NCBI GenBank assembly: GCA_035263325.1
Contig: DATFRK010000966.1
Location: 1 to 39,089 of the forward strand
DNA: 39,089 nt
From: Pyrinomonadaceae bacterium
GTDB lineage: Bacteria; Acidobacteriota; Blastocatellia; Pyrinomonadales; Pyrinomonadaceae
Direction of reading: 5' to 3'
Shown: positions 1 to 33,058 of the stretch, piece by piece
Layout: each line of letters starts with the position of its first letter
How positions within the stretch are numbered: the stretch's first letter is position 1
Made by a program: the position numbers and the translations under genes
The notes under the pieces: model-generated
The model's input: only the letters and a program-made list of their open reading frames with translations
Told to the model about the DNA's origin: nothing
Database searches by the model: none

Positions 1-203
1 CCTTTCACCAGGAAAAATCGTTTCCGCGAGAGGCCTTTGGTTGATTCACCAATTCTCCCGCGGGCTCGCAGCCGCAGCACTCCTGTCTTAGGCGCTGTGC
101 TTTGCGTCTGGGTTGCGGCGGGGATCGACAGAAAGAGAAAGACGAGCGCTATCACCATAACTAGCGCCATTCTCGAGGCTGCTTTCTCCGGGTTGCTTCT
201 CAT
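1..203 (-). CDS. Hypothetical secreted protein, N-terminal fragment (gene continues beyond left edge)
   Basis: Absent from the ORF track because no stop lies in the window. Minus-strand ATG at 203 (alternative ATG at 170). 67 codons are open to the window edge: MRSNPEKAASRMALVMVIALVFLFLSIPAATQTQSTAPKTGVLRLRARGRIGESTKGLSRKRFFLVK. It has a hydrophobic signal-peptide-like core. It starts 7 nt after the stop of the 211..2331 gene on the same strand. Confidence 0.45.
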   Translation of the reverse strand, partial: MRSNPEKAASRMALVMVIALVFLFLSIPAATQTQSTAPKTGVLRLRARGRIGESTKGLSRKRFFLVK

Positions 204-210
204 TCGTAGC

Positions 211-2331
211 TCACAGGTTCGGGCTTCGCGGAAACTTCAAAAACGGGAGCCGCACGCCACGCACAAAAACTTGATCGGAGCGTATTGCCGGAGCAGGAGA
301 AAAACCATTTCCACCGGCTGCGGCGATCAGATCATCCTGGTCCACGCCGTCGCCACTGATGCCAATCGCTCCCACCAGCACTCCGTTCTTGTAAAGCGGA
401 ACACTGCCGGGAAAAATCTGCAGACCATTTGGCAAGTTCGGAATGGAAGTACAGGGCATCGGAGTCCCGCCTAGAGTGGCCAGCAGGTTTGCCTTGGTCA
501 CATCAAGTTGCAGGCCAACGTTGAAGACACTCCATTCGCTCAGTGGGGTACTGAATGGCCCAGCCTGGGTATTGTCGATGCCATCAGGGAAGAATGGCCG
601 GTGCAAAAAGCCGCCCGCCCGATCAGTGAAGGCCACTGAACCATTGAGTTGCAAACCATCAGCAGCAGCGCGGTCGACATAGGAACCAAAACCGGCGCCG
701 CGCAATAGAGTCGCAGCATTAGCATTTGAGTAAAAAGCTGCCGTTCGCGCCTTCTGCACTGCCACATCGAAACCAAACACTGGCGCGTCTTGCTGGCGAA
801 ACACACCAAGCACTTTGCCCTCAGCATCAACCACGGCGATCGTAACTCGTGCATTACTGCCTAGGGGTTGCCGGATCGCGGCTCGAGTGATGTTTGCTTG
901 TTGGGCGGCGTGCGCGATGATGGTCTGCACGTCAGTTGCACTCAACGCGTTTGCTGTGGCCGGAGAGCTGCCGGCGACAAAAGGAAAGAAGCGTGTATCG
1001 ACTTCCCCGGCGATGCCACCAACTGTCGCAGGTATAAAAGCGGACGTTGGTGGAGTAACAAAAGTTATCGAACCAACGCCGGGCAAGCTGCCGAATGGAA
1101 TCGTGGCGGGCGCCGGTGGATTGGCGACGTTGGAATACGCCAGACGTATACCATCGACTAGTATGTTGTCTCCCTTGATCAAAGCAGGCGCCTCAAAGCC
1201 TCGTACGCCTGAGGCGGCGATCAACTCCTCAAACGGTTGATCGAAGTCGGCCGGATCGCGATCTACCGTGTAGAGTCCGTCACCTTCGACGCCTATGCCT
1301 CCGGCAGCCACTCCGTTGCGATAGATGGGCAAACCACCAGGATCGGCGGAGAGGCCGACAGGTAGCGCTGGCTTCTTGATGTCGCTGCAGGGAAGAGAAG
1401 AGAACTGCACGCCATAAAGCGGGCCACTGGAGCGAAAACTGATGCCTGGCGGGAAGTGTTCCTGAACGATAAAACCGGCAGTGCGAGTCGTAAAAGCGTT
1501 GCCGCCAGTGCTGAAAAAAGCCGCCGTCCCGGCCTTTGAGGTAGCGGCTAGTAACGAAGGCACCACCTGTCCTTCGAGGCCGCGTCCCACTGTGCCGACG
1601 CTACGAATAGATGTCGTGGTTGGTGCACCCGTCATAGTGAACGTTCCCAGCACGTTGCCCTCTTTGTCAGTAACAACAACGGTAACGTTACGTCCCATTT
1701 GTGCTGCGGCAGAAACTGCCTGGGCAATGATCGTCTGAACATCACTGGGAGTCAGTGTGGTCGTGGGAATAGTTGGTCCAGGCGCCGGTTGCAAACCAGG
1801 GTTACCCGGCGTGGGCAACGCATCGACGGCATCGGGTGGTCCACCGCCGACGTGGCCAATGCCGACACGTACCCGATTGCTGGCGACGTTGTGATACTTG
1901 ATTCCCACCAGCACATCGCCGAGATCTGCCATCTCATCGTTAAGACGCAGGACAATTGAAGAAGCCCAGGGTTGATCTGGCACGTCGCCGACATACTCAA
2001 CCGTCAGTGGATGAACAGTGTGTTCAGCATCTTCGGCATCCGCGGTAACGAGAGCTGAAGTCTCGCCAGGCTGTAACTTCAGATTCATCGCAAACAGCAT
2101 GATGCGTGTGGAATGATCGATGCCGAAGGTCAGTTCGGAATTTGCGGCGAAGGGTTCGCGAGTGTGCGTGACTGACTCGAAAGCGATAGCTCGAGTCGAG
2201 TCTGAGTGACTGATGAGGACAGGAGCCGGTGCCTGGGCCGTAGCTTTCTGAAAACGATAGAGCGCGGCCAGAAGGAAACTCGCGCAGATAAACAACCAGA
2301 CTAGAAAGCGAATGCCTGAATTTGCGGTCAC
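211..2331 (-). CDS. Secreted or membrane-anchored protein with two tandem GlcG/HbpS-like (DUF336, haem-binding/degrading fold) domains
   Basis: 706-aa ORF with an N-terminal hydrophobic segment (IRFLVWLFICASFLLAAL). Two internally homologous modules are present: TPSDVQTIIAQAVSAAAQMGRNVTVVVTDKEGNVLGTF ... LPIYRNGVAAGGIGVEGDG, and SATDVQTIIAHAAQQAN...VTIAVVDAEGKVLGVF ... VPLYKNGVLVGAIGISGDGVDQDDLIAAAG. The second ends with the classic GlcG/DUF336 G-x-IG-[VI]-SG-x-x-x-x-D motif. Confidence 0.7.
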   Translation of the reverse strand: MTANSGIRFLVWLFICASFLLAALYRFQKATAQAPAPVLISHSDSTRAIAFESVTHTREPFAANSELTFGIDHSTRIMLFAMNLKLQPGETSALVTADAEDAEHTVHPLTVEYVGDVPDQPWASSIVLRLNDEMADLGDVLVGIKYHNVASNRVRVGIGHVGGGPPDAVDALPTPGNPGLQPAPGPTIPTTTLTPSDVQTIIAQAVSAAAQMGRNVTVVVTDKEGNVLGTFTMTGAPTTTSIRSVGTVGRGLEGQVVPSLLAATSKAGTAAFFSTGGNAFTTRTAGFIVQEHFPPGISFRSSGPLYGVQFSSLPCSDIKKPALPVGLSADPGGLPIYRNGVAAGGIGVEGDGLYTVDRDPADFDQPFEELIAASGVRGFEAPALIKGDNILVDGIRLAYSNVANPPAPATIPFGSLPGVGSITFVTPPTSAFIPATVGGIAGEVDTRFFPFVAGSSPATANALSATDVQTIIAHAAQQANITRAAIRQPLGSNARVTIAVVDAEGKVLGVFRQQDAPVFGFDVAVQKARTAAFYSNANAATLLRGAGFGSYVDRAAADGLQLNGSVAFTDRAGGFLHRPFFPDGIDNTQAGPFSTPLSEWSVFNVGLQLDVTKANLLATLGGTPMPCTSIPNLPNGLQIFPGSVPLYKNGVLVGAIGISGDGVDQDDLIAAAGGNGFSPAPAIRSDQVFVRGVRLPFLKFPRSPNL

Positions 2332-2515
2332 GGCAATTGCGGAGAGAAGTTGCGAAACGAACCCTTCAAGTCATTCCCAATGTATCACAAAGGATGCGGG
2401 ACAAAATAGATAGTTGTTTCCCAGAATTCCGTTGCCTCCCTACCACTCGTATGTTACAAGGCAAGGAAGTCGCGAATTTCGATCCTGTCTGTATCGCGAC
2501 TGATCAAGAAACAGC

Positions 2516-4573
2516 GTGAAGAGTTATCCCTTCAAAATCATAACTGTTGTTTTGTGGGTTATCTCGAGCTTTGCCTCCGCCGTGGCCCAAAGTGACGGGC
2601 ACCTCAAGGGCACGGTGAGGAATTCGAGTGGTGGCCAAGTGGCCGGAGTGGTGGTGGTTGCGACCAACCAGGTTACCAGCCAGGCCAAAGAAACGCGCAC
2701 CGCTAGTGACGGTTCTTATTCACTAAAACTTTCTCCGGGTGCGTATCGACTCACCGTTGCTCCACCAAACGTTGCTCAGTTCGATAAGGACAAGAACTAC
2801 GGCGACTTCATCATTGTTCGGGGTGACAGACTTGAGAATGTCATTGTCGATGCGGGTAAAGACATCGCAATCGATATCGTGCTGGCAAAACCCGAAGAGG
2901 TACAGATCCCGGCGACGCCTCAGCGCCGCGAGACGCCGGACCGCTGGCGCATCGAGTTTCCCGAGTACGATCGCTACGGAGATCGTGGTGCACGAGGTCG
3001 AGACATTCCCTTCAAACGCGGTCGTTGGTGGAATCCCTACAATCAAAGCGTTCTCAAAGGAGACTATCCAATCAAGGGCGACAAGCTCTTCATGATCTTG
3101 TCTGCCGTTAGCACGACGCCGGTCGAACAAAGACGCGCGCCAACGCCATCGGATGTTAGCAGTGTGGATCCATTGAGTGCGGAATTCTTTGGCCGGCCCG
3201 AACAATTCGCGACCAGCGAAACTTTGCAGGTTAGTTTTGAACTGTTTCATGGTGACACCACCTTCAAGCCGCGCGACTGGGCCATCAAGGTTTCCCCAAC
3301 TTTCAGCATTCCTAACTATCTGAACGCGCGGGAAAACGGGGTGGTGAATATCGATGTCCGACGCGGGACGAATCGCACTGACTGGCATGCCTCATTGGAA
3401 GAGGCGTTTGCTGAAGTAAAACTCGCGGACATTAATGCGAACTATGACTTCGTCTCTGTTAGAGCCGGCATTCAACCTTTTGTGTCTGACTTTCGCGGTT
3501 TCATCTTCTCCGACAACAACCTGGGAGCGCGCGTCTTCGGAGCAGGTGACAACAATCGCATTCAGTTCAACGCGGCGTATTTCTCAATGCTCGAGAAGGA
3601 CACCAATAGTGGTTTGAACCGCTTCGACACGCGTCACCAGAATGTCTATATCGGGAATATCTTTCGCCAGGATTTTATTCGTAAAGGCTATACCATCCAG
3701 GGAAGTTTTCATTACAACGACGATCGACCGAGCATCGAGTTTGATCGTAACGGATTTCTGGTGCGTCCGGCGCTTATCGGTGATGTTCGTCCGCACGCGG
3801 TTAAGGTTGGCTACCTCGGTTTTAGCGGTGACGGTCATCTTGGGCGATTGAATCTCTCGCACTCGTACTACTACGCCTTTGGGCACGATGAGCGTAATCC
3901 GATCGCTGGTCGCCGGATCGATGTCCGGTCAAACATGGCAGCAGCCGAAGCGTCAGTGGACCGGGATTATCTTCGCTTTAAGGGCTCTTTCTTTTGGGCC
4001 CAGGGCGACAGCAATCCCACGGACGACAAGGGGACCGGTTTTGATGCGATCTTCGACGATCCTAATTTTGCCGGCGGGCAGTTTTCTTTCTGGGTGCGCA
4101 ACGGCATTCGTTTGACTCAAACTGGAGTTGGGCTGGTCCAGCCGAACAGTTTGTTGCCAAGTTTGCGCAGCAGCAAGACTCAGGGCCAGGCGAACTTTGT
4201 GAATCCGGGGTTATTTCTCTACAACGCCGGCGTGGATATCGAACTAACGCAGCGTATCAAGGCCGTCGTCAATGTAAACTACCTGAGGTTTCATCGAACG
4301 GAGCCGTTGGAGTACATCCTCTTTCAAAATGCTATTCGCCACGAGATTGGCTGGGACTACAGTTTAGGAGTGGCTTATCGTCCATTTCTCATTAACAACG
4401 TGACCCTGACGTTTGGTGCGGCGAGTTTGCAGACGGGCCGAGGCTTTCGTGACATCTTTACCGACAAGTCGCGAAACTGCCCGCCGAACGTCGGAGATTT
4501 TTGCGAGCCGGCGGTAATTGGTCCAAACAAGATGTTGTATTCGTTGTTTGGCCAATTGAAGTTGGTGTTCTAG
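2516..4573 (+). CDS. Outer-membrane beta-barrel protein with N-terminal carboxypeptidase-regulatory-like (CarboxypepD_reg) domain
   Basis: GTG start. Signal peptide MKSYPFKIITVVLWVISSFASAVAQ. Residues ~27-125 fit the CarboxypepD_reg pattern (GTVRNSSGGQVAGVVVVATN...TASDGSYSLKLSPGAYRLTV). The remaining ~550 aa have a beta-strand-like alternating aromatic/hydrophobic pattern with G/N/D turns and a C-terminal ...GQLKLVF ending in Phe, as in BAM substrates. I recognise no TonB box or plug. Barrel subfamily is uncertain (alginate-export/porin-like). Confidence 0.7.
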   Translation: MKSYPFKIITVVLWVISSFASAVAQSDGHLKGTVRNSSGGQVAGVVVVATNQVTSQAKETRTASDGSYSLKLSPGAYRLTVAPPNVAQFDKDKNYGDFIIVRGDRLENVIVDAGKDIAIDIVLAKPEEVQIPATPQRRETPDRWRIEFPEYDRYGDRGARGRDIPFKRGRWWNPYNQSVLKGDYPIKGDKLFMILSAVSTTPVEQRRAPTPSDVSSVDPLSAEFFGRPEQFATSETLQVSFELFHGDTTFKPRDWAIKVSPTFSIPNYLNARENGVVNIDVRRGTNRTDWHASLEEAFAEVKLADINANYDFVSVRAGIQPFVSDFRGFIFSDNNLGARVFGAGDNNRIQFNAAYFSMLEKDTNSGLNRFDTRHQNVYIGNIFRQDFIRKGYTIQGSFHYNDDRPSIEFDRNGFLVRPALIGDVRPHAVKVGYLGFSGDGHLGRLNLSHSYYYAFGHDERNPIAGRRIDVRSNMAAAEASVDRDYLRFKGSFFWAQGDSNPTDDKGTGFDAIFDDPNFAGGQFSFWVRNGIRLTQTGVGLVQPNSLLPSLRSSKTQGQANFVNPGLFLYNAGVDIELTQRIKAVVNVNYLRFHRTEPLEYILFQNAIRHEIGWDYSLGVAYRPFLINNVTLTFGAASLQTGRGFRDIFTDKSRNCPPNVGDFCEPAVIGPNKMLYSLFGQLKLVF

Positions 4574-4593
4574 TTGTAAGACGTCGTCAAATC

Positions 4594-5103
4594 TTCACCA
4601 CGGAGACACAAAGAACACGGAGGGGGCACAGAGAAACAAACAAGAAATCAATAGTCAGAAAAGGAGAAGCTTATGGATCCTCACCTAAATGAGCTGACAC
4701 ATGAAATCATTGGCAGCGCAATTGAAGTTCACCGACATCTGGGACCAGGACTACTCGAGTCCGCTTATCGACTGTGTCTTTGTCGAGAATTATCTCTTCG
4801 AGGATTCAGTTTCAATCACGAGCACTGGCTTCCGGTTGACTACAAAGGTCTAGAGTTGCCATGCACGTACAAGGTGGACATCGTGGTTGAGAAACTGGTG
4901 GTGGTTGAGTGCGAAGCGGTTGAAGCGTTGCAGCCGATTCACGACGCCCAACTCTTAACCTATCTTCGGATCGGCGGCTGGAGACTGGGACTACTAATCA
5001 ATTTCAACGTGGTAGTTCTAAAGAATGGTATCCGCCGCAAGATAATGGGGTACGACAACTAATCTCTGTGTAACCTCCGTGCTCTTTGTGTCTCTGTGGT
5101 GAA
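4594..5103. mobile_element. Inverted-repeat-bounded GxxExxY gene cassette (candidate miniature insertion, no transposase)
   Basis: The left arm 4594..4633 (ttcaccacggagacacaaagaacacggagggggcacagag) and the reverse complement of 5064..5103 (ttcaccacagagacacaaagagcacggaggttacacagag) are identical at 35 of 40 positions. They bracket a single 129-aa gene and fill almost the whole spacer between the barrel gene stop (4573) and the cytochrome start (5128). Confidence 0.6.
4673..5062 (+). CDS. GxxExxY family protein (PD-(D/E)XK nuclease-like superfamily)
   Basis: 129 aa. The N-terminus LTHEIIGSAIEVHRHLGPGLLESAYRLCLCRELSLRG contains the eponymous G-x-x-E-x-x-Y (GLLESAY). It is followed by VDIVVEKLVVVECEAV and QLLTYLRIGGWRLGLLINF, typical of this family. 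GGAG lies 7 nt upstream of the ATG. Confidence 0.85.
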   Translation: MDPHLNELTHEIIGSAIEVHRHLGPGLLESAYRLCLCRELSLRGFSFNHEHWLPVDYKGLELPCTYKVDIVVEKLVVVECEAVEALQPIHDAQLLTYLRIGGWRLGLLINFNVVVLKNGIRRKIMGYDN

Positions 5104-5127
5104 AATTTTAGTTGCCCTAAAGTCATC

Positions 5128-8100
5128 ATGATGATGCGAGCGATCAAATTTGTTCTGGCGGTATTAACTAGTGCGACTGTAATTGGCGCCATATCAGCGT
5201 CATCACCGCCTTCAAACACGGTCACCGAAGAATCAACACTCTTCAGAAATCAGACACCGGCGCCCGCCAAGCTCGAAGGGTGTGTCTCCTGTCACGGGCT
5301 GATCGAGCCGATGCATAAGTACGGCACCACCGACACCCTCGACAAGCTCAAAGACGGCAAAGATGCCGTGGGCTTAAGTTGCACCGCCTGCCACGGCGGC
5401 AACCCATTACCCAGTAAAACCAGTGAAGACCCGAAAGAAATCGAACGCGTCAAGCGCGAGGCGCACGTCAAGGCGCGCTTTCCCAATGAATGGCTGCGGA
5501 ACGGGCGCGCCACCGGAGCCAATCCCGAACGAACGAATACACTTCTTGCTCGTGAAAGTTGGGAGTACGTCCGCTTCATCAATCCTGGTGACTTGCGTGT
5601 CGCCGCTAAAACTTGCGGCGGCGGCGCCTGTCACGACCTCGAATCCAAGAATGTTGCTCGCAGCATGATGACCCACGGCGCCATGCTCTGGGGTGCGGCA
5701 CTCTACAACAACGGCAGTTTCCATCTTAAAGATCCACGCTTCGGAGAAAGTTACAACGAAGCGGGCGCGCCGCAGACCCTGCTGCAAGCTACGACCGAAG
5801 AACAACGGCGCGCCAAGGGCATGTTGAGCCTCCTCGACCCGATTCCACGCTGGGAGATTTCGCAGCCTGGTAACGTGCTCCGTGTGTTCGAACGAGGTGG
5901 CAAACGTCGACTCGAAGTAGGTCTGCCTGATAAGGAAGAAGACCCGGGTAAGCCCGACAAGGGCCTGAGCGCCCGCGGCTTCGGCAGCGCGCAACGCACC
6001 GATCCGGTCTTCCTGGGATTGCAGAAGACGCGTTTGTTAGATCCAACCCTCAATTTCCTGGGTACCAATGATCACCCAGGCGATTATCGTTCGTCGGGTT
6101 GTGCCGCCTGTCACGTGATCTATGCCAACGATCACGATCCTGCGCACTCAGCATCCTATGCGCAGGCCGGAAATCTCGGTCGTTCGCAAACAGCCGATGT
6201 AAACATTCCTAAAGATGAGTCGGGCCATCCAATCAAACATCAATTCACCAGTCAGATCCCTTCGTCGCAGTGCATGGTCTGTCACATGCACCCGGGCACA
6301 AACATGGTCGCGAGTTATCTTGGTCTAACCTGGTGGGACAATGAATCAGACGGCAGCAAACTCTATCCCACGAAGCAACACAACCCCAGCCAGGACGAGG
6401 AACAGGAGAAACTGGATCGCAATCCGGAAGCGTCCAGCCTGCGCGGCCTGTGGTCAGACTTTGATTTTCTTGCCAAGACCGGAACACCAGATTTCAACGC
6501 CCTGCTGCGCAACACGCAATTTGCCGATTCGCACGGGCACGGTTGGCTCTTTCGCAAAGTTTTCAAACGCGATCGTAAGGGCAACCTCCTCGACGCCCAG
6601 GGAAATATAGTTTCCGCCGACGATCCCAACAAATTTAGCAAGGCAGTGCACCTAGACGACATCCATCTCGAAAAAGGGATGCACTGCGTCGATTGTCACT
6701 TCCGCCAGGACTCGCACGGCGATGGCAATCTCTACAATGAACCGCGCGCGGCGATCGAGGTCTCCTGTGAAGACTGTCACGGTTCAATTCGCCAGAAGGC
6801 GACGCTGTTTACTTCGGGCCCCGCTGCTGCATTGACGACGGGCAGTGCGGCTGAACGACGGAAGACGCAAAAACAACCTCTCCTCGGCCAGGATATGACC
6901 CGGATTCGCGTCCGGGATGAAACGGGCTCGGCGATCCCGCTCTTTCAAAGAATCACTCGCGACCGCAAACGCAAAGATGAAAAAGGGGCCGACATCGATC
7001 TTAAAGTCGGCGACGTTGTCCAGAACTCGATGGTTGTGCCTGGCCGTTGGTGGCGCGTGGTGCAAACTCTCGACACGATCACACCCAACAGTCGCGACTT
7101 CAGTGAGAAGTCGCGCTACGCGAAAACAATCCGCAAAGACAACGCTACCTTCGGCGATGTTCCGGCCGACAACAACCTGTTGGCCCATAGGGACTCGGAC
7201 ATGACCTGTGTCTCATGTCATTCGTCCTGGATGACCAGTTGCTTTGGTTGTCACTTGTCGATGCAGGCGAACCGGAAGATGCCCAACAGGCACAACGAAG
7301 GCGGCAACTCACGCAACTTCACCCAGTACAACTTCCAGGTCTTGCGTGATGACGTGTTCATGTTGGGACGTGACGGTACCGTGACCGGCAATCGAGTGGC
7401 GCCGGTGCGCTCTTCGTCCGCCATTTTGGTTAGCTCGCAGAATCAGAATCGCGAGTGGATCTATTCACAACAGCAGACAACTTCTGCCGAGGGTTTTGCC
7501 GGCCAAACATTCAACACCCATGTGCCACATACGGTAAGGGCGAAGGAAACAAAAGCTTGTAGCGACTGTCACGTGTCGGAGAAGAACGACAACAATGCCT
7601 GGCTGGCCCAGTTGCTGTTGCAGGGCACAAACTTCGTTAACTTCATGGGTCGTTATGTTTATGTTGCAGCCGCCGATGCCCTGGAAGTTGTAGTTGCAAC
7701 GGAGCCGACCGAGCCGCAAGCAGTTTTTGGCAGCACCCTGCAGAAGATTGCCTACCCAACGAACTATGAGGAGTTTGTCCGTGGTGGCAGCGAACTGAAG
7801 ACTGCTTACGAGCACAGCGGCAATCCACGCGTGCTCCAGGTGCAGTTGCGCGGCGAGTACGCGTACGTGGCCGCAGGCGAAGGCGGGTTGCGTGTTTACG
7901 ATGTCGCGCAGATCGATCAGAAAGGCTTTTCTGAAAGAATAACCACGGCTCCCGTGTCGCGCTTTGGTCAGAAGTTTTGGGTGAAGACTAAGTATGCGAC
8001 TGCTGTGGCGGCGCCAACCACCCTGGCGGTGGATCCGGCCCGTTGGCGCGTAAAGGCTGATGGGACAATGATTGATCCGGTCAGTGCAGCACGTCTAAAC

Positions 8101-9063
8101 GGGGCAGCGCGGCGGCAGTTAGTGAATGAAGAGCAACCAATTCACCCGCTTTACGCCTATCTCTATGTTGTCGACAAGTATGAAGGATTGATCGTCGTCA
8201 ATGCGGCGACTCTACTCGATGGCGATCCACTCAACAACTATCTGAAACGCGCGCTGGACGGACAAAGGTATGCGCGCGGTGCGTTCAATCCAGCTGGGGC
8301 GCTCAATGATGCAAATAACATCACCATCGCAGGCACTCACGCGTACATCACCACCGCGAGTGCGCTGGTAGTAGTCGATATTAATGATCCGTTGAATCCG
8401 CGCATCGTAAGCAAGGTTGAGTTGAAGCATCCCCGTTCGCTGGCCATCCAGTTTCGTTACGGTTTCGTGGTAGATGACGAAGGGCTCAAGGTACTCGATT
8501 TAACAATGCCCGAACGTGCGCAATTGGTGAATGGCGCTGGCGTCGCACTGGCAGATGCGCACGACGTCTATGTCGCTCGCACTTATGCGTATGTGGCCAA
8601 TGGCAAAGAGGGGATTGCGATTATCGATGTGGAGCAACCCGAGCATCCGCGGTTGGACCAGAGCTACAACGCCGAGGGAAAACTGAGCGATGTGCATCAA
8701 GTGAAGGTGGCGATGACGAATGCGAGTTTGTTCGCGTACGTCGCGGACGGAAAGAATGGGTTGCGCGTCTTGCAGCTGACGTCGCCGGAAACGACGCCGG
8801 AGTACGCGGGCTTCAGCCCTCGGCCCCGGCCCGTTCTGATCGCGACTTATAAAACTAAGGGAGAGGCGCTTGCGATTTCCAAGCCGCTGGATCGTGATCG
8901 GGCGGTTGATGAGAGTGGTAACCAGGTTTCGGTGTTTGGCCGCCGTGGCGCTCGCCCATTCACGCTGGAAGAGATGATGCGGATGCTGCGTACCAATGAT
9001 GGTACTGGCTCCTGGTTCCGGGTGAGCGACGAACCGTCACGGACGACTTCAAGCTTGCGCTGA
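5128..9063 (+). CDS. Secreted multihaem (about 10 haem) c-type cytochrome with C-terminal LVIVD-repeat beta-propeller
   Basis: The ORF track starts at 5086, inside the right inverted repeat. I prefer ATG 5128 ([24 protein letters not shown], signal peptide). There are nine in-frame CXXCH motifs at 5281, 5380, 6100, 6271, 6685, 6766, 7207, 7240 and 7558, plus a CX4CH (CGGGACH) at 5614..5634. The C-terminal region 7855..8790 carries six repeats of the type YAYVAxGxxGLxVxD. Confidence 0.85.
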
Positions 9064-9064
9064 A

Positions 9065-9153
9065 ATCCACAGATTACGCAGACCGCACTGAAATAAAGAG
9101 AGGTAAACAACAGCAGTACATAGGCTAAGAAGAAATCTGCGTAATCCGCGGAT
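9065..9153. repeat. Intergenic hairpin element, ATCCRCRGATTACGCAGA family
   Basis: 9065..9083 (atccacagattacgcagac) and the reverse complement of 9135..9153 (atccgcggattacgcagat) match at 16 of 19 positions, with a 51-nt loop. The element lies between the cytochrome stop and the amidohydrolase start, and the right arm overlaps ATG 9152. Confidence 0.6.
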
Positions 9154-10426
9154 GGTTTCGTCTAAAACTATGCGTCAAAGTACTTACTATAAAGCGATCA
9201 TTCTAATCGCCCTGATAGACATCAGCATTTTCATAACGAGTAACGCGCAGCAGCGAAACACACCCAAAGCAAAACGCGTCGTGATTGCCGCCAGTACCGT
9301 ACTGGATGGCAAAGGTAACGTGCTCCGAAACACCCGCATCGTGATTGAGGGAGCGAAGATCGTCGCCATTGATCCAAAGGCTGGGCCAGTGGACTACGAC
9401 CTGCGTGGTCTAACTGTCATGCCAGGGTGGATCGACGCTCACGCGCACATTACCTGGAGCTTTGGCAAAGATGGCAAGAATGCGGGCCCCGGAGAGACCA
9501 CCCAGGACGCAGCCTATAGCGCGGCGGCGAATGCCTGGGCCACGTTGTTGGCCGGCTTCACTACGATACAAAGCCCGGGTTCACCAACCGACATTCCCTT
9601 GCGCGAGTCAATCGCGAAGGGCCTGTTACCAGGCCCACGGATCTTGACCTCGGCGCAACCCCTGCAGGGACGGGGTGAGCAGACCGGTACGCCTGATGAG
9701 ATTCGTGCCTTTATCAGAAAGCAAAAGGAAGCAGGCGCGAATTTAATTAAGATCTTTGCCTCGCAAAGCATCCGGCAGGGTGGCGGCATGACTCTCTCGC
9801 AAGAACAATTGAATGCTGCCTGCGATGAGGCGAAAAAATTGCGACTGCGCACATTGGTACATGCTTACAAGAATGCGGTGCGTGCGGCGACCATTGCCGG
9901 CTGCACGCAGGTTGAGCATGGCACCCTCGCGACAGACGACGATTTGAAACTCATGGCCCAGAAGGGAACTTATCTCGATCCGCAGGCGGGGCTGGTTATC
10001 GAAAACTACCTGCTGAACAAGGACAAGTATCTCGGTACTCCTGGATACACGGAAGAAGGCTTCGCCGCGATGGAGAAAATCTTGCCGCTGAACCATGAAC
10101 TGGTGCAGCGGGCGTCAAAAATTCCCGGACTGAAAATCGTCTTTGGTACAGACGCAGTTGCAGGATCGCACGGTCGCAATGCAGAGGAGTTTATCGATCG
10201 CGTGAAAGACGGAGGCGTAGCTCCGCTGACGGCGATGATCTCCGCCAATTCGCTGGCGGCCGAGGCGATGGGCCTGTCGGATCAGATTGGCTCTATCGCT
10301 CGTGGTCTTCAGGCCGACATCATCGCCCTCGACGGTGATCCTTTGAAAGACATCACCGCCGTCCGTCGCGTCACCTTTGTGATGAAGGGTGGTGTGGTCT
10401 ACAAGGACGCCCGGCCCTCGCGCTAA
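9152..10426 (+). CDS. Secreted metal-dependent amidohydrolase family protein
   Basis: 424 aa with a hydrophobic N-terminus (YYKAIILIALIDISIFITSNAQQ). Contains the GWIDAHAH metal-binding HxH motif, later HAY...VEHG and FGTDA motifs, and the C-terminal ADIIALDGDPL pattern typical of the amidohydrolase fold. The start could instead be ATG 9170. Confidence 0.8.
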   Translation: MVSSKTMRQSTYYKAIILIALIDISIFITSNAQQRNTPKAKRVVIAASTVLDGKGNVLRNTRIVIEGAKIVAIDPKAGPVDYDLRGLTVMPGWIDAHAHITWSFGKDGKNAGPGETTQDAAYSAAANAWATLLAGFTTIQSPGSPTDIPLRESIAKGLLPGPRILTSAQPLQGRGEQTGTPDEIRAFIRKQKEAGANLIKIFASQSIRQGGGMTLSQEQLNAACDEAKKLRLRTLVHAYKNAVRAATIAGCTQVEHGTLATDDDLKLMAQKGTYLDPQAGLVIENYLLNKDKYLGTPGYTEEGFAAMEKILPLNHELVQRASKIPGLKIVFGTDAVAGSHGRNAEEFIDRVKDGGVAPLTAMISANSLAAEAMGLSDQIGSIARGLQADIIALDGDPLKDITAVRRVTFVMKGGVVYKDARPSR

Positions 10427-10456
10427 CCCAAGGGTAGAAAAACAAAGCCTTCAAAC

Positions 10457-10490
10457 AAAATACCCCCAACTGCCGTTGGGGGTATTTTTC
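10457..10490 (+). terminator. Rho-independent terminator
   Basis: Perfect 10-bp stem atacccccaa (10460..10469) / ttgggggtat (10476..10485) with a 6-nt loop, followed by tttt. It lies 31 nt after the amidohydrolase stop. Confidence 0.75.
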
Positions 10491-10551
10491 TTGACCCGCG
10501 GTCAATTATTGCGGTAAATTACTTGGCATCGCAAAGTACTAGACGCTAAAC

Positions 10552-11289
10552 ATGAATATCTTCAAGCATTTGTCTTCGGCCCCTCTTCCCTCTCTGGGTT
10601 TCATCTTACTAATCGGTCTGGCTGGTCTCGCCTGGTCGTACTTCTGCCTGCGTTTCGCCGGCTATCTCAGGTGCCACCGTAATCTTCGCAGCGGCTATAC
10701 CCGGAAGACGTTTCACCTCCTCATTTTCATTACCGTCGCAGTGCTGCAACTCCGCTGGGGTCTCTTTGCCGTTTGTGTGTTCGGCGCCATGACCACGTTT
10801 GTCATCGCTTACGCACTGCTACGCGGGGTGGGCCATCCGCTTTACGAAGCCATCGCCCGTGAATCCGATCGACCGCATCGCACCTATTACATAGTAATTC
10901 CTTATCTCGCGACCCTTATCGGCGGCATCGCCAGCAATCTTTTCTTCGGACCTTTAGCACTGGTTGGCTATTTAGTTGGTGGGATTGGCGACGCCGCGGG
11001 CGAGCCGGTGGGAACAAGATGGGGCAAGCATCAGTATAAGGTTTTATGGTTGGGACGAAAGGCGGGCACCAAGAGCCTCGAAGGCTCAGCCGCGATCCTG
11101 TTTGCTTCGTTGCTGGGGCTGCTTCTCGCCCTGGCAATTCATCGACAGTTGAACTGGCAATCACTCATTCCGATTGTTTTGATTGCCTGCATCTGTACGG
11201 TGATTGAGGCCGCGTCGCCGCGGGGCTGGGACAACACGCCGATGCAGTTTGTCCCTACGTTCCTGGCGTTCTTGTTACTGCCGCGTTGA
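10552..11289 (+). CDS. Integral membrane protein, cytidylyltransferase / polyprenol (dolichol, phytol) kinase-like superfamily
   Basis: 245 aa with multiple hydrophobic helices. The C-terminal region GGIGDAAGEPVGTRWGKH...GTKSLEGSAA resembles the conserved nucleotide-binding loop of the CdsA/dolichol kinase/phytol kinase superfamily. The exact activity cannot be assigned. Confidence 0.5.
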   Translation: MNIFKHLSSAPLPSLGFILLIGLAGLAWSYFCLRFAGYLRCHRNLRSGYTRKTFHLLIFITVAVLQLRWGLFAVCVFGAMTTFVIAYALLRGVGHPLYEAIARESDRPHRTYYIVIPYLATLIGGIASNLFFGPLALVGYLVGGIGDAAGEPVGTRWGKHQYKVLWLGRKAGTKSLEGSAAILFASLLGLLLALAIHRQLNWQSLIPIVLIACICTVIEAASPRGWDNTPMQFVPTFLAFLLLPR

Positions 11290-11317
11290 AGAACTTCAAG
11301 TTGAAGAGGTCACTGTG

Positions 11318-11992
11318 ATGCTCAGATCTTTGCTGCGATCGACGGACGTCAAGAGAGTCGTGATAATCAGCGCGCTTGTACTTTGGTGCTGCTGCATGAT
11401 CGCTGTCCGAGTTCATCGCTCTGGTTCAAGCTATTACCTGTTCCTGGTTTGGAACCTGTTTCTGGCGGGTATCCCCTTGGTCCTCAGCACGGTGTTACGC
11501 GCCCTGGTTCATCTGCGCGCACGCCTGGTCTGGCAGCTTAGTTGTCTTGTTTTGTGGCTGCTGTTTCTGCCAAATGCGCCTTACATTCTCACCGACCTGC
11601 AACATCTCAAGTATTCAACTACTACTGTGCCAGCCTGGTATGACGTAGCGCTGCTCATCTCCTGCGCCGGCACGGGTTTACTGTTGGGCTATTTGTCGTT
11701 AGTCGATGTGCAGGAACTTGTGGCCCGGAAGTTCGGTTCTGTATCCGGTTGGTTGTTTGCACTTACGTCGTTGGTGTTGGCTGGCTTTGCTCTCTACCTC
11801 GGACGCTTCCTTCGCTGGAACAGTTGGGATCTGCTCATCAGGCCGGGCAGGTTTCTTGATATAGGAGGCGCACTGTTGCACCCCTTTCACCTCACCCAGC
11901 CTTTATCCGTTACTTTCATCTTCGGCACCATCCTGGCACTTGGATATATCGCCATTCGTGTTTTGCTGGTGAAGCGAGTGGAGTCAACATAG
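11318..11992 (+). CDS. DUF1361-like integral membrane protein
   Basis: The ORF-track start 11204 overlaps the previous gene by 86 nt. ATG 11318 (MLRSLLRSTDVKRVVIISALVLW) is more plausible. Motifs WNLFLAGIP, LPNAPYILTDLQHL and RWNSWD match my recollection of DUF1361. Confidence 0.6.
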   Translation: MLRSLLRSTDVKRVVIISALVLWCCCMIAVRVHRSGSSYYLFLVWNLFLAGIPLVLSTVLRALVHLRARLVWQLSCLVLWLLFLPNAPYILTDLQHLKYSTTTVPAWYDVALLISCAGTGLLLGYLSLVDVQELVARKFGSVSGWLFALTSLVLAGFALYLGRFLRWNSWDLLIRPGRFLDIGGALLHPFHLTQPLSVTFIFGTILALGYIAIRVLLVKRVEST

Positions 11993-12097
11993 AGAGCCGC
12001 GAGTGGTAGCGAGCGGATGCTTCGGTCAACTTTAAAGAGCAGTGACTAGCTTCAAGTTGGCCGTGGCCGCCGGTCGCTACCCCTCACGGTTCTCTAT
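11989..12097. repeat. REP-like palindromic element, ATAGAGA...GGTAGCGA...GGATG family (copy 1)
   Basis: The arm 11992..12016 (gagagccgcgagtggtagcgagcgg) pairs with 12070..12094, whose reverse complement is gagaaccgtgaggggtagcgaccgg. The outer ends are atagaga/tctctat. The stop codon of the DUF1361 gene (11990..11992) lies inside the element end. Confidence 0.65.
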
Positions 12098-12112
12098 TGC
12101 TTATCCTAAGGC

Positions 12113-12574
12113 GTGGCTGAAACTCTGATCGGAATCATCTCTGACACGCATGGGCTGGTGCGGCCGGAAGCCATTGCTGCCCTCCAGGGTGTGGATCTGA
12201 TCCTGCACGCCGGTGACATTGGCAACCAGGACGTCCTCGATACTCTCCGGCAGATTGCCCCAGTCGTCGCCGTTCGCGGCAACAACGACAAAGGCGAATG
12301 GGCCAATGATCTGCCTGATTGGGAAGTTACGGAAGTTGGCCCAGTCTCCATTTACATGTTGCATAACCTGAATGAGATGGATGTTCGCCCCAGTGGCATT
12401 TTTCAGGTGGTGGTCAGCGGCCACTCTCATCAACCGTCAGTGGAAGAACGCAAAGGTGTTCTATACGTGAATCCCGGCAGCGCCGGCCCCAGAAGATTCA
12501 CCCTGCCGGTGACGGTCGCACATCTGAAGGTAGAAGGTGAAAATGTCGCCGCGCATCTAATCGAGCTTCTCTGA
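12113..12574 (+). CDS. YfcE/MJ0936-type metallophosphoesterase
   Basis: GTG start, 153 aa. Carries the canonical calcineurin-like motifs in order: GIISDTHG, HAGDIG, RGNND, SGHSHQP, NPGSAG. Confidence 0.8.
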   Translation: MAETLIGIISDTHGLVRPEAIAALQGVDLILHAGDIGNQDVLDTLRQIAPVVAVRGNNDKGEWANDLPDWEVTEVGPVSIYMLHNLNEMDVRPSGIFQVVVSGHSHQPSVEERKGVLYVNPGSAGPRRFTLPVTVAHLKVEGENVAAHLIELL

Positions 12575-12783
12575 ACGACGCAGGACAGCGAGCGGTAGCA
12601 ATCTGTTCCTCAGTCCCCAACTGGCAGGTAGCTTGCGACCGCTTCGCGGGCAGCAATTTGCTTCCTCAGGCAACACTGTTAGTCCACTCGTTTGTTACAC
12701 ATAAACCGAATCAAAAGGAAACTTGTCCTGCTCTGTTTTGTGTTAGATGGGTTTCTCGCTGCTCGGTTCGGAAATCCGCGTAA

Positions 12784-12801
12784 TCTGTGTAATCGGTGGA
12801 T
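12784..12801. repeat. Solo copy of the ATCCRCRGATTACGCAGA-family repeat (reverse orientation)
   Basis: tctgtgtaatcggtggat matches the consensus of the right arm at 9137..9153 (tctgYgtaatcYgYggat). It is preceded by a partial atccgcgtaatc and lies directly 3' of the BlaR1-like gene stop. Confidence 0.45.
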
Positions 12802-12804
12802 GGC

Positions 12805-14748
12805 TCACTGCATTCGCTCAATCGAGGTAATCTTCATTTGGCCGTTGCTCCTGGTGCCGTGGACTTTGTAATGGACCTCTGACTCGTGCTCGGAGCCGTC
12901 GATCAGCGCATGAATGGTTCCGGCAACACTGGCAATGAATCTGCCGTTGTCTTCTGAGACGTCAAACTCGTCAAACTCGACCTTTGTAATTTGCCGGTCC
13001 TTTCGCATCGCTTCCGCAATCTCCTCCGCCTTATTACGCATTGTTCCATCAGCCATCACGCCCTGGTAATCATCGTCCAGCACGCGCTCGAAGAATGATG
13101 CGTCGTGACGCATCGAGGCGTAAGCCAGCTCGCGCAACAAGGTAAACACCGATTCGCCGCCCTTGTGACTGGTGAGCGATTTATCCTCGACCGCCATATC
13201 CAGTGGCGATGGCGGGGGAGGTGGTGGCGGGGCTTCAGCAGTGACCTGACGAAGTTGCTCAGAAAGGGACGAGAGATCCCAGTTGGGATGCTCCGAACGG
13301 TAGATGTTATACCTGACTGCCCCCGCGAAGAGTTTCTTACCGTCAGTACCTTCACTTTCCTCAGTCGCCAGAGCCTTGATGCGCCGCAGCGCCCGCAGTC
13401 GATACTCCGCATTGGTGTCGGCTGAGGCAATCTGGATGAGCGGCTCCATCTCACTGTTACTGGCAAACTTGTCAATCAGCATTATCTTTACTTCAGGGTC
13501 GTTGGTTTGCTGGTAGAGCTCGACCATGGCGGGACTACTGCCGTCGCCTTCTAACTCAGTGAGTCGCACAGCCGCCAGCCGGCGCAACTCAGCGTCTGGA
13601 TTCTTCAAGGCCATGTCGATCAATTCGGCGAAGGCTTTGTTGTCACCCAATGCTCCTACCAGGCGTAGTTCCAGGCGTAGTTTGTCAGTGGGTCGATCAA
13701 TGAGTTGAGCCTGGCCGGACTTCAGGCCGCCGATGGGAATCAACAGCCAGGCGACCACGGCAATCAAGCCGGCAAACAGACTCACCATTTTCCAATGACG
13801 CGCACCAGCGCGGACGCGATCGAAATTCAGAATCATTTCAATTCTCCTTTCCAACGAGCGTTTGGAGGTAAAAAAGGCGAGCTGATGATCGGCTTGGAGC
13901 AGCAAACGCCGCTCAGCCACCTTTAGGAGACCATCAGCATAATTTTCCGGGAGCGCACCCCGCCCGACAACGCGTTCATCACACGCCAGTTCACGTTCAA
14001 GACTTAACTGGCGACAGGCATAGCGGACCAGGGGATGAAAAAAGAAGACGATTTGTAGCGCGGTTTGAAAGTAGTTGACGACCGTATCGAGTCGCTCGAG
14101 ATGAGCGAGCTCGTGCTGAATCATGGCCCTGCGTTCGTCGACGGTGGTCCATTCGGCAATGTCGTGCGGTAGCAGAATTACCGGACGAATGAGGCCGTGG
14201 AGCAAGGGACAATGGACTTGCTTTGTCAGTCGCAGATCAATCTGACAACTCTCTGCTTCGAGATTCAACTGAGCGAGTGTGACCCTTTGGGCGCGGCGCT
14301 TGATTCTTCCGAACCTGATTTGAATCATTGCTACTCGCAGCGACGCAAACGCGGCCCCTACCAACCAGACAACAAATAGGACTGGCAAGGCAACAGGAAG
14401 AACGCTTGCGGGCTCAGAAAGCCGGTTGTTTGCTGGTGTTTTCTGTTTGTTTTTAACTGGCGTGGTAACAGTGGGTGCTAGCTCGATCACCGCCCGGGGC
14501 GCTTCAATTACGTAGTTCAAGGTCCTATTCGTTGGGCGGGCAAGGGATAGGTTTTGTACCAGGGGAGTTAAGAGTGGGAGAAGAGCAATCGCAATAAGAC
14601 AGAACAGCCAGGTTTGGTGTCGCACTACCGGCGCCCATATCCTCACGATCCTGAGACTGCACCAGGCAATGATTACCAGCACCAGCGCCTGCCAACTCAA
14701 AACGAGTAGTTCGATAACAAACCGATCGGCGAATGCAATTGGATTCAT
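12805..14748 (-). CDS. BlaR1/MecR1-type M56 peptidase signal transducer with non-canonical C-terminal sensor region
   Basis: 647 aa. N-terminal TM helices are followed by the zinc-metalloprotease motif HELAHLERLD (HELAH at 14101..14115). A further TM segment is followed by a helical-repeat region, a PPPPPPPSP linker (about 13208..13234) and a ~120-aa C-terminal domain. The start overlaps the BlaI-like gene stop by 4 nt (ATGA). Confidence 0.8.
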   Translation of the reverse strand: MNPIAFADRFVIELLVLSWQALVLVIIAWCSLRIVRIWAPVVRHQTWLFCLIAIALLPLLTPLVQNLSLARPTNRTLNYVIEAPRAVIELAPTVTTPVKNKQKTPANNRLSEPASVLPVALPVLFVVWLVGAAFASLRVAMIQIRFGRIKRRAQRVTLAQLNLEAESCQIDLRLTKQVHCPLLHGLIRPVILLPHDIAEWTTVDERRAMIQHELAHLERLDTVVNYFQTALQIVFFFHPLVRYACRQLSLERELACDERVVGRGALPENYADGLLKVAERRLLLQADHQLAFFTSKRSLERRIEMILNFDRVRAGARHWKMVSLFAGLIAVVAWLLIPIGGLKSGQAQLIDRPTDKLRLELRLVGALGDNKAFAELIDMALKNPDAELRRLAAVRLTELEGDGSSPAMVELYQQTNDPEVKIMLIDKFASNSEMEPLIQIASADTNAEYRLRALRRIKALATEESEGTDGKKLFAGAVRYNIYRSEHPNWDLSSLSEQLRQVTAEAPPPPPPPSPLDMAVEDKSLTSHKGGESVFTLLRELAYASMRHDASFFERVLDDDYQGVMADGTMRNKAEEIAEAMRKDRQITKVEFDEFDVSEDNGRFIASVAGTIHALIDGSEHESEVHYKVHGTRSNGQMKITSIERMQ

Positions 14749-15143
14749 CTCTTTTCTCCGGCGCCGGATTTCGCTTTACGCTGAGCGAGTCTCTGCCTGA
14801 TCTCACGCAAATCGTCTTCGGTGAGGTCGCCTGTTTCGACGAGGTGCAGTACGAGTGAGGCTGCGGAGCCACCGAACACCTGTTTGATCACGTGGCCGAC
14901 GACGTGGCCGCGCGATTTTGCCGGCTGCTGGCGCGCGCGGTAGATGTACGACTTGCCCTCGCTGCGGTGTGTTAGATGGCCTTTTCTCTCGAGTACCCGG
15001 ATGATAGTTAGGACGCTGTTATAGTGTCGTTCACCTGGAAGTTTGGCCTGGATCTCGCGGGCTGAGGCTTCACCCAATTCCCAGACCACGCGCATGATTT
15101 CCAGTTCTTTGTCAGTAAAGGTTTTTGAGGGTTTTCGTGGCAT
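14745..15143 (-). CDS. BlaI/MecI/CopY family winged-helix transcriptional repressor
   Basis: 132 aa. LEIMRVVWELGEASAREIQAKL...YNSVLTIIRVLERKGHLTHRSEGKSYIYRA is the typical Penicillinase_R domain. It is translationally coupled to the downstream M56 gene. Confidence 0.85.
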   Translation of the reverse strand: MPRKPSKTFTDKELEIMRVVWELGEASAREIQAKLPGERHYNSVLTIIRVLERKGHLTHRSEGKSYIYRARQQPAKSRGHVVGHVIKQVFGGSAASLVLHLVETGDLTEDDLREIRQRLAQRKAKSGAGEKR

Positions 15144-15159
15144 TTGTTTCTTTCGGTAA

Positions 15160-15179
15160 TCAACGGATAAATACGTTGA
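15160..15179 (-). promoter_or_regulatory. Candidate BlaI-family operator, proximal (TCAACG-N8-CGTTGA)
   Basis: Perfect 6+6 palindrome tcaacg gataaata cgttga, 17 nt upstream of the repressor start codon (15143). Confidence 0.55.
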
Positions 15180-15210
15180 TGCGCAGGATAATGTGTTTCC
15201 AGCGGAGTTG

Positions 15211-15230
15211 TCAACGTATTTTTACGTTGA
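15211..15230 (-). promoter_or_regulatory. Candidate BlaI-family operator, distal (TCAACG-N8-CGTTGA), overlapping a TTGACA -35-like hexamer
   Basis: Perfect palindrome tcaacg tattttta cgttga. Its centre is 51 bp from the proximal site. On the minus strand it overlaps TTGACA (15214..15209), with a weak -10-like CATTAT at 15193..15188 (15-nt spacing, so the promoter call is weak). Confidence 0.5.
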
Positions 15231-15257
15231 CGAGGTTTTTCTCGGTGGAGAGTATCC

Positions 15258-16262: not shown

Positions 16263-16404
16263 CGTTATCAGTTAACATCTGCATGGCATAAGCCGTCAAT
16301 TTCTTGTCGCCCACGGTCAACTCAAGACTGAATAGAATGGCGTACTCGCGGTGTCTAGCAATTGTCCAAGGGTTTTGAGCTTCTATTATTGAAGGAGTGA
16401 ACCC

Positions 16405-18222: not shown

Positions 18223-18312
18223 GCGAAGCCGTGTGCATTCGTGCAGGAACTGTGAAAGTGAACCGCCGTTTCAAACTAATGAATATTAGCGGATGGCCCC
18301 TCGTTCTTGTTC

Positions 18313-18409
18313 AACTCTCCGCGCTGTCTCCGCGAGTCTGGGGTGGCGTTGAAGCGAAAAATGGACTCTACCGCAGAGGCGCGAGGACGCAGAGGTTGCG
18401 CGGAGAGTT
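18313..18409. repeat. Long imperfect hairpin in convergent intergenic region, related to the GxxExxY cassette arms
   Basis: Perfect 12-bp outer stem aactctccgcgc (18313..18324) / gcgcggagagtt (18398..18409), with further imperfect pairing inside. The right half ctaccgcagaggcgcgaggacgcagaggttgcgcggagag follows the same accRcRgagRcRcRaRgaRcRcRgagg pattern as 4594..4633. Confidence 0.5.
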
Positions 18410-18460
18410 TCTAAGTAAGTCGCCGAGACGTTGAGTTGGGCGCTAGGTGTCGACCTTAAG

Positions 18461-22219: not shown

Positions 22220-22269
22220 CGTGAGTAATTGGCGGTGAATAATAAACGGTCGGAGTGGCGTCGCCAAGT

Positions 22270-25655: not shown

Positions 25656-25697
25656 TGCCAGGGGCCTGGCCAATCGCAGTGTGAGATTGAAGGATTT

Positions 25698-28115: not shown

Positions 28116-28161
28116 TCGACTCTCTCCTATATATCAATCATCATTTCTGCTTCGTCGTTCT

Positions 28162-29013: not shown

Positions 29014-29020
29014 ACAGCCC

Positions 29021-30352: not shown

Positions 30353-30373
30353 TCCCTCGATAAGGAGCAACTT

Positions 30374-33056: not shown

Positions 33057-33058
33057 TC

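Follow-up and report, generated by a model that had tools for sequence, protein, structure and literature searches.

The window analysed here is a 39,089-nucleotide stretch, contig DATFRK010000966.1 of the Pyrinomonadaceae assembly GCA_035263325.1 (phylum Acidobacteriota). It carries a gene for a large secreted protein in which a predicted ten-haem c-type cytochrome is followed by a beta-propeller of the LVIVD type, and upstream, on the same strand, a gene for a putative outer-membrane barrel (Table 1). The open reading frame (ORF) of the cytochrome gene spans 5086..9063 (+) and its first ATG is at 5128, which gives coordinates identical to those of the original prediction, made by a model from the sequence without database searches. 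A TTG start at 5086 was rejected: it would add a Cys-rich N-terminus that is not a signal peptide, and since this 5' extension overlaps the right arm of an inverted repeat belonging to an inserted upstream gene (PDDEXK_3, described below), the start at 5128 is favoured. The encoded protein shares 90% identity with P0001 across 100% of its length, and 120 other full-length proteins are 79-90% identical to it.

Translation followed by a motif search reproduced exactly, at the same coordinates, the nine CXXCH motifs and the single CX4CH motif of the original prediction. All Cys residues of the protein (20/20) sit in these ten motifs, and the gene is the sole CXXCH-rich ORF of the window. Shuffling the protein 20,000 times gave a mean of 0.009 CXXCH and a maximum of 2, so the nine observed are not explained by chance; the five other reading frames of the same DNA contain 0-1 motifs and 24-54 stops. 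A Sec-type signal peptide, also predicted, is recognizable by its basic N-region and the 15-residue hydrophobic core that follows (mean Kyte-Doolittle hydropathy 2.3). There is no lipobox, nor any Cys before the first haem motif, and a hydropathy scan along the protein found no later transmembrane-like stretch.

Table 1. Features of the cytochrome gene, its barrel partner and the adjoining cluster genes in the window
Feature	Position	Strand	Details
Decahaem cytochrome-LVIVD propeller gene	5128..9063	+	1311 aa (amino acids); stop codon included; intact ORF
Sec-type signal peptide	5128..5199	+	residues 1-24; cleavage site assigned by eye
Haem motif 1, CVSCH	5281..5295	+	residues 52-56
Haem motif 2, CTACH	5380..5394	+	residues 85-89
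Haem motif 3, CGGGACH (CX4CH)	5614..5634	+	residues 163-169
Haem motif 4, CAACH	6100..6114	+	residues 325-329
Haem motif 5, CMVCH	6271..6285	+	residues 382-386
Haem motif 6, CVDCH	6685..6699	+	residues 520-524; inside Pfam Cytochrom_c3_2 match 513-559
Haem motif 7, CEDCH	6766..6780	+	residues 547-551
Haem motif 8, CVSCH	7207..7221	+	residues 694-698
Haem motif 9, CFGCH	7240..7254	+	residues 705-709; closely paired with motif 8
Haem motif 10, CSDCH	7558..7572	+	residues 811-815
Seven-bladed LVIVD-type beta-propeller (predicted)	7639..8877	+	~residues 838-1250; Pfam, AlphaFold2, Foldseek, repeats
Near-invariant C-terminal motif RDRxxDExGNQ...RxGxRP	8893..8958	+	residues 1256-1277; >=90% conserved, 150 sequences
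Partner gene, putative outer-membrane barrel	2516..4573	+	685-aa secreted protein
CarboxypepD_reg domain of partner	2603-2884	+	residues 30-123; Pfam
HbpS/GlcG-like gene	211..2331	-	706-aa secreted protein, tandem domains; Pfam PF03928 E=1.9e-24
Start of next cluster gene 'cl3' (Ig-like secreted protein), cut by window edge	3..110	-	tblastn of L001 cl3, residues 40-80, 54% identity

Conservation was assessed in alignments of 150 sequences with 40-91% identity, which also served for modelling. Conservation is at least 98% for each haem Cys and each proximal His, and the ten sites are all kept in 15 representatives at 40-60% identity; the expectation that the Cys-His motifs recur in full-length homologues thus holds down to 40% identity. 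Motif 3 is CX4CH in some relatives and CXXCH in others, with its Cys and His 100% conserved, and since the two forms alternate at one alignment column we consider it a genuine haem site. The cytochrome part contains 13 further conserved His (63, 113, 367, 371, 388, 469, 471, 508, 513, 530, 687, 722 and 801) and three conserved Met (62, 181 and 518), which suffice as sixth ligand for all ten haems; the ligation is probably mostly bis-His. By its motifs, their conservation and the signal peptide, the protein is an exported multihaem c-type cytochrome, with predicted haem attachment.

The part without haem motifs at the C-terminus comprises ~495 residues, and not ~400 as originally estimated. Pfam identifies the predicted LVIVD repeat there (PF08309; 63.4 bits against a cut-off of 20.2, E=1.2e-17, in three stretches). 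Six repeats had been quoted, and all six strings are present, but the count is seven, one at residues 841-859 having been missed: hairpins of the form YAYVA...GLxVxD begin at residues 843, 911, 1009, 1071, 1111, 1153 and 1202. We modelled the protein with AlphaFold2 as two overlapping parts, residues 26-870 and 800-1311. The model of residues 800-1311 (predicted local distance difference test, pLDDT, 92.3; predicted template-modelling score, pTM, 0.92) is nearly all beta-strand, in groups of four, and the seven repeats together with this predicted strand pattern suggest a propeller of seven blades. A Foldseek search with this model gave 1054 matches at E<=0.001, the best-ranked being propellers, with solved ones at E ~1e-8, in line with the propeller signal expected from structure prediction. 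Among them are an archaeal S-layer seven-bladed YVTN propeller (the best match), the d1 propeller of cytochrome cd1 nitrite reductase, AztD, PorZ, DDB1 and LRP6; the template-modelling scores (TM-scores) to solved propellers, 0.3-0.55, correspond to generic propeller similarity. Across the 150 sequences, the propeller region (residues 835-1311) lacks any His, Cys or Met that reaches 90% conservation, the best being H1006 with 72%. The acidic/basic motif directly after the last blade is the most conserved feature of the C-terminal part.

In the model of residues 26-870 (pLDDT 83.7, pTM 0.87), short helices surround the haem motifs, and two inserts (~residues 594-644 and 708-797) are rich in beta structure. 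Pfam gave fragmentary c3/c7/c554 matches only (~residues 504-559). Searching the PDB with the window protein gave no match by sequence and, by profile, only local dihaem matches, with E=3.7e-4 for NrfB and E=6e-4 for octahaem nitrite reductase. Foldseek found nothing below E=2.4 for this model, fold search being insensitive for loop-rich haem proteins. The cytochrome part is without a solved relative by sequence, profile or fold, the last being a search that catches loop-rich haem folds poorly. In NCBIfam we found only matches far below threshold, to ExtM, ExtN/O, OTR, NrfB and HmcA (65.6 bits against 800 for ExtM, NF040943; 15.4 against 375 for OTR; 20.1 against 184 for NrfB), and a weak one to the choice-of-anchor B family. 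ExtM is the best-scoring named family (E=2.7e-18), in three stretches confined to dihaem motifs. It is a 68-kDa, 12-haem Geobacter cytochrome without a propeller, encoded in the extHIJKLMNOPQS cluster (PMC5877670); like the window protein, it is encoded together with a porin-like protein and with b-type and iron-sulfur (FeS) proteins (PMC5877670). The view that this is not a characterised family was upheld: the protein scores far under every NCBIfam cut-off, has no relative in the PDB, and belongs to a kind of fusion that our literature search did not find.

The low haem density and the large non-haem regions could indicate a periplasmic multihaem oxidoreductase acting on a soluble substrate (for example an oxyanion or chelate of nitrogen, sulfur, selenium or a metal), with one active-site haem, a propeller that shapes the pocket and a partner barrel that is a porin. 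An enzyme of this kind might give local profile matches such as those to NrfB and octahaem nitrite reductase, and the weak match to ExtM, from the Geobacter selenite/tellurite operon, points the same way; the PDB matches, however, are limited to single dihaem motifs. All ten motifs end in the canonical His and none is CXXCK or CX15CH, the special active-site forms of multihaem enzymes; the conserved distal His and Met are enough for all ten haems, and neither family models at their cut-offs nor fold comparison gave a match to NrfA, the octahaem nitrite and tetrathionate reductases (OTR for the latter), HAO or MccA. Enzymes that combine c-type haem and a propeller on one polypeptide do exist, some of them solved, as in cytochrome cd1 nitrite reductase, the alpha subunit of hydrazine synthase and the quinohaemoprotein dehydrogenases, and the first of these is among the Foldseek matches of the propeller; but that match is generic (TM-score 0.4), level with DDB1 and LRP6. 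In those enzymes the c haems number one or two and the catalytic cofactor sits in the propeller, whereas here there are ten haems and a propeller without conserved His, Cys or Met, that is, without the conserved cofactor or metal ligands of the cd1 d1 propeller or of the pyrroloquinoline quinone (PQQ) dehydrogenases. One barrel relative has moreover gained a tetrahaem domain (see below), which a plain porin would not need. We consider the oxidoreductase improbable.

We turned to the genomic context, for which counts rest on 80 related loci. In every locus with enough upstream DNA, a homologue of the partner gene lies directly upstream of the cytochrome gene on the same strand; KSB1 and other lineages have barrel homologues, recognised by hhalign (E=2e-152, 1e-59 and 5e-43), in the same directly upstream position. 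The partner protein has a signal peptide, no transmembrane helix and ~24 amphipathic beta segments (z ~2.9 relative to shuffles), and its C-terminal Phe/Tyr is retained in nearly all relatives, features that make it a putative outer-membrane beta-barrel. The ~550-aa remainder outside its CarboxypepD_reg domain has no match in NCBIfam, in Pfam (E<=10) or in the PDB by sequence or profile. The N-terminal domain is variable: CarboxypepD_reg in most lineages, absent in KSB1, AMIN in L084. In a Blastocatellales metagenome-assembled genome (MAG), a tetrahaem cytochrome c3 domain replaces CarboxypepD_reg (L079:7426-9765; Pfam Cytochrom_CIII, E=3.5e-10), which places haems on the barrel protein itself; this barrel alone has CXXCH motifs (4, against 0 in the window barrel). 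With its N-terminal c-type haem domain and barrel on one polypeptide, the L079 protein is like the Cyc2-type fused porin-cytochromes. It differs from Cyc2 in that its haem domain is a tetrahaem c3 and not monohaem, and the window barrel differs in having CarboxypepD_reg instead of a haem motif; the barrel part is ~550 residues.

Barrel and cytochrome genes are separated in the window by a PDDEXK_3 gene (GxxExxY-type nuclease fold; 4673-5062) flanked by a 46-nt inverted repeat (4589-4634 and 5063-5108, 87% complementary). Its presence at this spot in only 10/80 related loci gives it the look of a small mobile or selfish element inserted into the operon. Scanning 2200-9300 for promoters and terminators gave nothing promoter-like, and as many terminator-like sites as chance would give, so that synteny is the basis for the operon structure in the window.

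Further domain fusions bear on localisation. In two clusters of relatives, P0434 and P0439, a Pro-rich linker and an OmpA peptidoglycan-binding domain are appended to the C-terminus of the cytochrome-propeller protein. The barrel partner of this OmpA-fusion lineage (locus L084:7599-14116) carries an AMIN domain; the pair is followed by a monohaem cytochrome c gene. OmpA_C and AMIN domains act in the periplasm, and since both the fusion and the partner domain are periplasmic, the most probable place of the window protein is the periplasmic side of the outer membrane. Signal peptides are plain in the window protein and in most relatives; lipoboxes occur in a minority of the distant ones.

These observations also bear on a different possibility, a cell-surface terminal reductase and adhesin analogous to MtrC/OmcA, which the barrel would export or anchor and whose propeller would bind minerals, polymers or cells. 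The definition of the LVIVD repeat comes from cell-surface proteins of archaea and bacteria (PMC2447325), an archaeal S-layer YVTN propeller is the top propeller match, and the weak match to the choice-of-anchor B family fits as well. The lipoproteins among distant relatives would suit a surface location, but neither the window protein nor most relatives have a lipobox, and the OmpA and AMIN fusions point to the periplasm. Some distant relatives show faint precomputed matches to PF22113, the model for pentahaem domains II/IV of MtrC/OmcA; the window protein has no such match at E<=1, and Foldseek gave no match to solved cytochromes, so that neither the Pfam model nor the fold of MtrC/OmcA is recovered. 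The large barrel of the OmcE clusters (see below) is thought to serve secretion or anchoring. No secretion-system genes recur in the neighbourhood here. We think a surface reductase unlikely.

The conserved unit extends beyond the barrel-cytochrome pair. On the other side of the barrel gene, and divergent from it in 53/80 loci (co-oriented in KSB1), is the HbpS-like gene. Its 706-aa product has ~190 N-terminal residues without a match, followed by two HbpS/GlcG-like domains, and among solved structures it is nearest to the formaldehyde sensor EfgA and to the C-terminal domain of PduO (E 1e-8 to 1e-5). The Ig-like gene, of which the window contains just the start, precedes in Pyrinomonadaceae relatives a set of cytochrome genes (two nonahaem, one tetrahaem, one heptahaem) and genes for FeS and membrane proteins. 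Terriglobia loci add a transmembrane-anchored decahaem cytochrome, a ferric-reductase-like membrane protein, an FeS protein with cyclic nucleotide monophosphate (cNMP)-binding domains, a NuoEF-like flavoprotein and a c554-like cytochrome, and KSB1 has the same parts in one co-oriented array.

The recurrent Terriglobia operon (L065:15380-21576 and the equivalent stretches of L073, L075-L077 and L080) adjoins the barrel-cytochrome module and encodes the transmembrane-anchored decahaem cytochrome, a membrane protein of 306 aa, ferric-reductase-like/DUF4405-like, and an FeS protein of 723-809 aa with 2Fe-2S, 4Fe-4S and two or three cNMP-binding domains, beside a NuoE-NuoF-like fusion. Judged from its gene content, it looks like a cyclic-nucleotide-gated path for electrons from NAD(P)H to the periplasm. 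A glucose-6-phosphate dehydrogenase gene is a recurrent neighbour of the barrel-cytochrome pair, in Terriglobia as well as in the lineage with the OmpA fusion (L065:6008-7543, L073, L075, L077, L005 and L084:15787-17352), a possible link to NADPH supply.

The conserved secreted tandem HbpS/GlcG-like neighbour could mean that the system is not respiratory, and serves, together with the HbpS-like protein, to buffer redox in the envelope, to store haem or iron, or to counter oxidative stress. Streptomyces HbpS has been linked to haem binding and redox-stress sensing, and the carriers are mostly aerobic soil bacteria. However, a full electron-input set (flavoprotein, FeS protein, b-type membrane protein) with at least five other multihaem cytochromes exceeds what a buffer or store would need, and we find such a role highly doubtful.

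The original prediction also put the protein forward as its best candidate for an undescribed system in the window. This is supported, with corrections: the unit is a conserved cluster that runs past the left edge of the window, and the family is very large rather than a one-off. We propose that the barrel and cytochrome genes encode an electron conduit of new architecture, a reading to which we give about an even chance. What was computed here is the haem sites with their conservation, the fold predicted for the propeller, the conserved gene order and the fusions of domains; haem ligation, the complex itself, where it sits, which way electrons flow and what they are exchanged with outside are what we infer. 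Under this proposal the ten covalently bound haems would form an electron-transfer chain in a Sec-exported protein, and the decahaem protein and the product of 2516-4573 would be subunits of a conduit associated with the outer membrane, the barrel providing a putative passage through that membrane, with a periplasmic N-terminal domain. The input would come from the NuoEF-like flavoprotein, the 2Fe-2S/4Fe-4S protein with cNMP-binding domains and the ferric-reductase-like b-type membrane protein. These cytoplasmic or inner-membrane modules would feed soluble and anchored multihaem cytochromes, and the soluble ones would pass electrons to the decahaem protein (either direction is possible). The barrel may then lead the electrons to an acceptor outside the cell, for instance Fe(III), Mn(IV) or humic substances.

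Since every relative keeps the propeller joined to the relay, and none of its residues is a conserved cofactor ligand, we read it as a docking or scaffolding module. It would be non-catalytic and might hold the barrel, peptidoglycan or partner cytochromes. The earlier suggestion of a haem wire attached to a docking module fits a propeller without conserved His, Cys or Met, and we retain it as a suggestion.

The proposed conduit resembles known systems in its arrangement. As in MtrCAB of Shewanella and in OmaB/OmbB/OmcB and the Ext systems of Geobacter, the putative barrel gene adjoins a decahaem gene, and the cluster includes periplasmic multihaem cytochromes and an inner-membrane input; as in porin-cytochrome conduits generally, the adjacency of the putative barrel gene to multihaem cytochrome genes is conserved across taxa. 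Unlike in the Mtr and Pcc conduits, no component is homologous to theirs, and the window cytochrome, at ~800 residues and with a fused propeller, is too bulky to thread the barrel. The predicted input here consists of ferric-reductase-like b-type, NuoEF-like and FeS proteins, and not of CymA, ImcH or CbcL. MtrA/DmsE (TIGR03508) is absent from the NCBIfam matches at E<=1; those proteins are compact, ~300 aa with ~30 residues per haem, against ten haems in ~800 residues in the window protein.

A precedent for the conduit comes from gene clusters in which a barrel, multihaem cytochromes and propeller proteins occur together. In OmcE nanowire clusters, separate propeller proteins are encoded with a large barrel and multihaem cytochromes (bioRxiv 10.1101/2025.10.22.684050). 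The uet cluster of Tenderia includes the NHL propellers UetH and UetI and a separate LVIVD protein (bioRxiv 10.1101/2022.05.06.490989), and NHL proteins of Desulfovibrio ferrophilus and G. metallireducens are also cited as propeller accessories of cytochrome clusters. The likeness lies in the co-encoding of propeller, large barrel and multihaem cytochromes, the propeller of those clusters being thought structural or adhesive. There, however, the propellers are separate lipoproteins of other repeat families, whereas here an LVIVD propeller is fused to the cytochrome in every full-length relative seen. The original claim, that no characterised multihaem electron-transfer protein was known with such a propeller, is in line with the literature searched for the fusion, but separate propellers adjoin the barrel and cytochrome genes of the OmcE and uet clusters.

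Several points weigh against the conduit. The cytochrome part, with ~800 residues, ~1 haem per 83 residues and beta-rich inserts, is nearer to multihaem enzymes than to MtrA-type wires, and is too large to fit inside the barrel. The barrel fold of the partner is read from sequence features, with no counterpart in Pfam, NCBIfam or the PDB, and the c3-barrel fusion was seen in one MAG only (1/66 barrel genes). A few distant relatives have lipoprotein signal peptides, so that their location could differ. Known Pyrinomonadaceae isolates are aerobic, which makes a role in anaerobic respiration not obvious. Finally, source annotations call members of the family hypothetical, and the function of every member is deduced.

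A bolder extension, which we hold only tentatively and think somewhat unlikely, is that the barrel and the decahaem-propeller protein form the outer-membrane end of an unrecognised, quinone-independent machine exporting electrons from cytoplasmic NAD(P)H, present across Acidobacteriota, KSB1 and other phyla. Electrons would pass from the NuoEF-like flavoprotein to the cyclic-nucleotide-gated FeS protein, then to the ferric-reductase-like dihaem-b membrane protein and on to the periplasmic multihaem relay.

Genes 3' of the cytochrome gene are not conserved, and the rest of the window consists of unrelated housekeeping genes. In the close relative L001 (14060-16891) mutS lies directly downstream of the cytochrome gene, and in the window it is found at 19364-22267. 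The ~10 kb between (9152-19264) encode an amidohydrolase, a DUF1361 protein, a metallophosphoesterase, an AraC regulator, an S15 peptidase and a methyltransferase, and also a BlaR1/BlaI pair (12805-15143). The displaced mutS suggests an insertion or rearrangement downstream of the window cytochrome gene. Further along, 24645-37722 is a polysaccharide export and biosynthesis cluster unrelated to the cytochrome finding, with Wza-like Poly_export/SLBB and Wzz-GNVR tyrosine-kinase-like proteins, an ABC-2 permease with a Wzt-type ATPase, a DegT aminotransferase and a GNAT protein.

The family is widespread. With the window protein as query we found at least 7672 significant proteins, the best 120 being full length, 79-90% identical and from Pyrinomonadaceae MAGs; a Terriglobia homologue found at least 8000, and a 41%-identical representative 4791, including proteins from KSB1, Wallbacteria and Planctomycetes. 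Counting one genome per species, at least 590 stretches encode a relative, mainly in Acidobacteriota, and the family spans many more than 10,000 sequence clusters. In a search of representatives clustered at 50% identity, the cytochrome part had 2386 matches at E<=0.001 and 509 at E<=1e-30; the retrieved representatives of ~1100 residues or longer all carry the propeller, bar one frameshifted gene call. Relatives are named "hypothetical protein", "multiheme c-type cytochrome" or "LVIVD repeat" in the sources, and "OmpA-like" in the case of the fused variant.

In the literature searched, which largely excluded subscription journals, we found no description of an LVIVD-multihaem cytochrome as one protein. 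The theme of cytochromes with a barrel and a propeller is already known; what appears new, in that none of it was found described there, is the covalent fusion of a decahaem cytochrome with an LVIVD propeller, together with the barrel family and the input module predicted here. This is the first case found of a multihaem wire permanently fused to an LVIVD propeller, and a ten-haem fold without a solved relative is of structural interest in itself.

Acidobacteriota are among the most abundant soil bacteria, and their life without oxygen is poorly understood. All Acidobacteriota genomes in surveys encode large multihaem cytochromes of unknown substrate (PMC8100337), and the family described here is one of these. 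It probably carries electrons across the cell envelope of soil Acidobacteria, and the conserved barrel-cytochrome cluster is a concrete candidate for extracellular electron exchange in the soil cycling of iron, manganese and humic matter. If the export machine proposed above is real, it would offer abundant "aerobic" soil bacteria an outlet for electrons, in the form of Fe(III), Mn(IV) or humic matter, once oxygen is exhausted.

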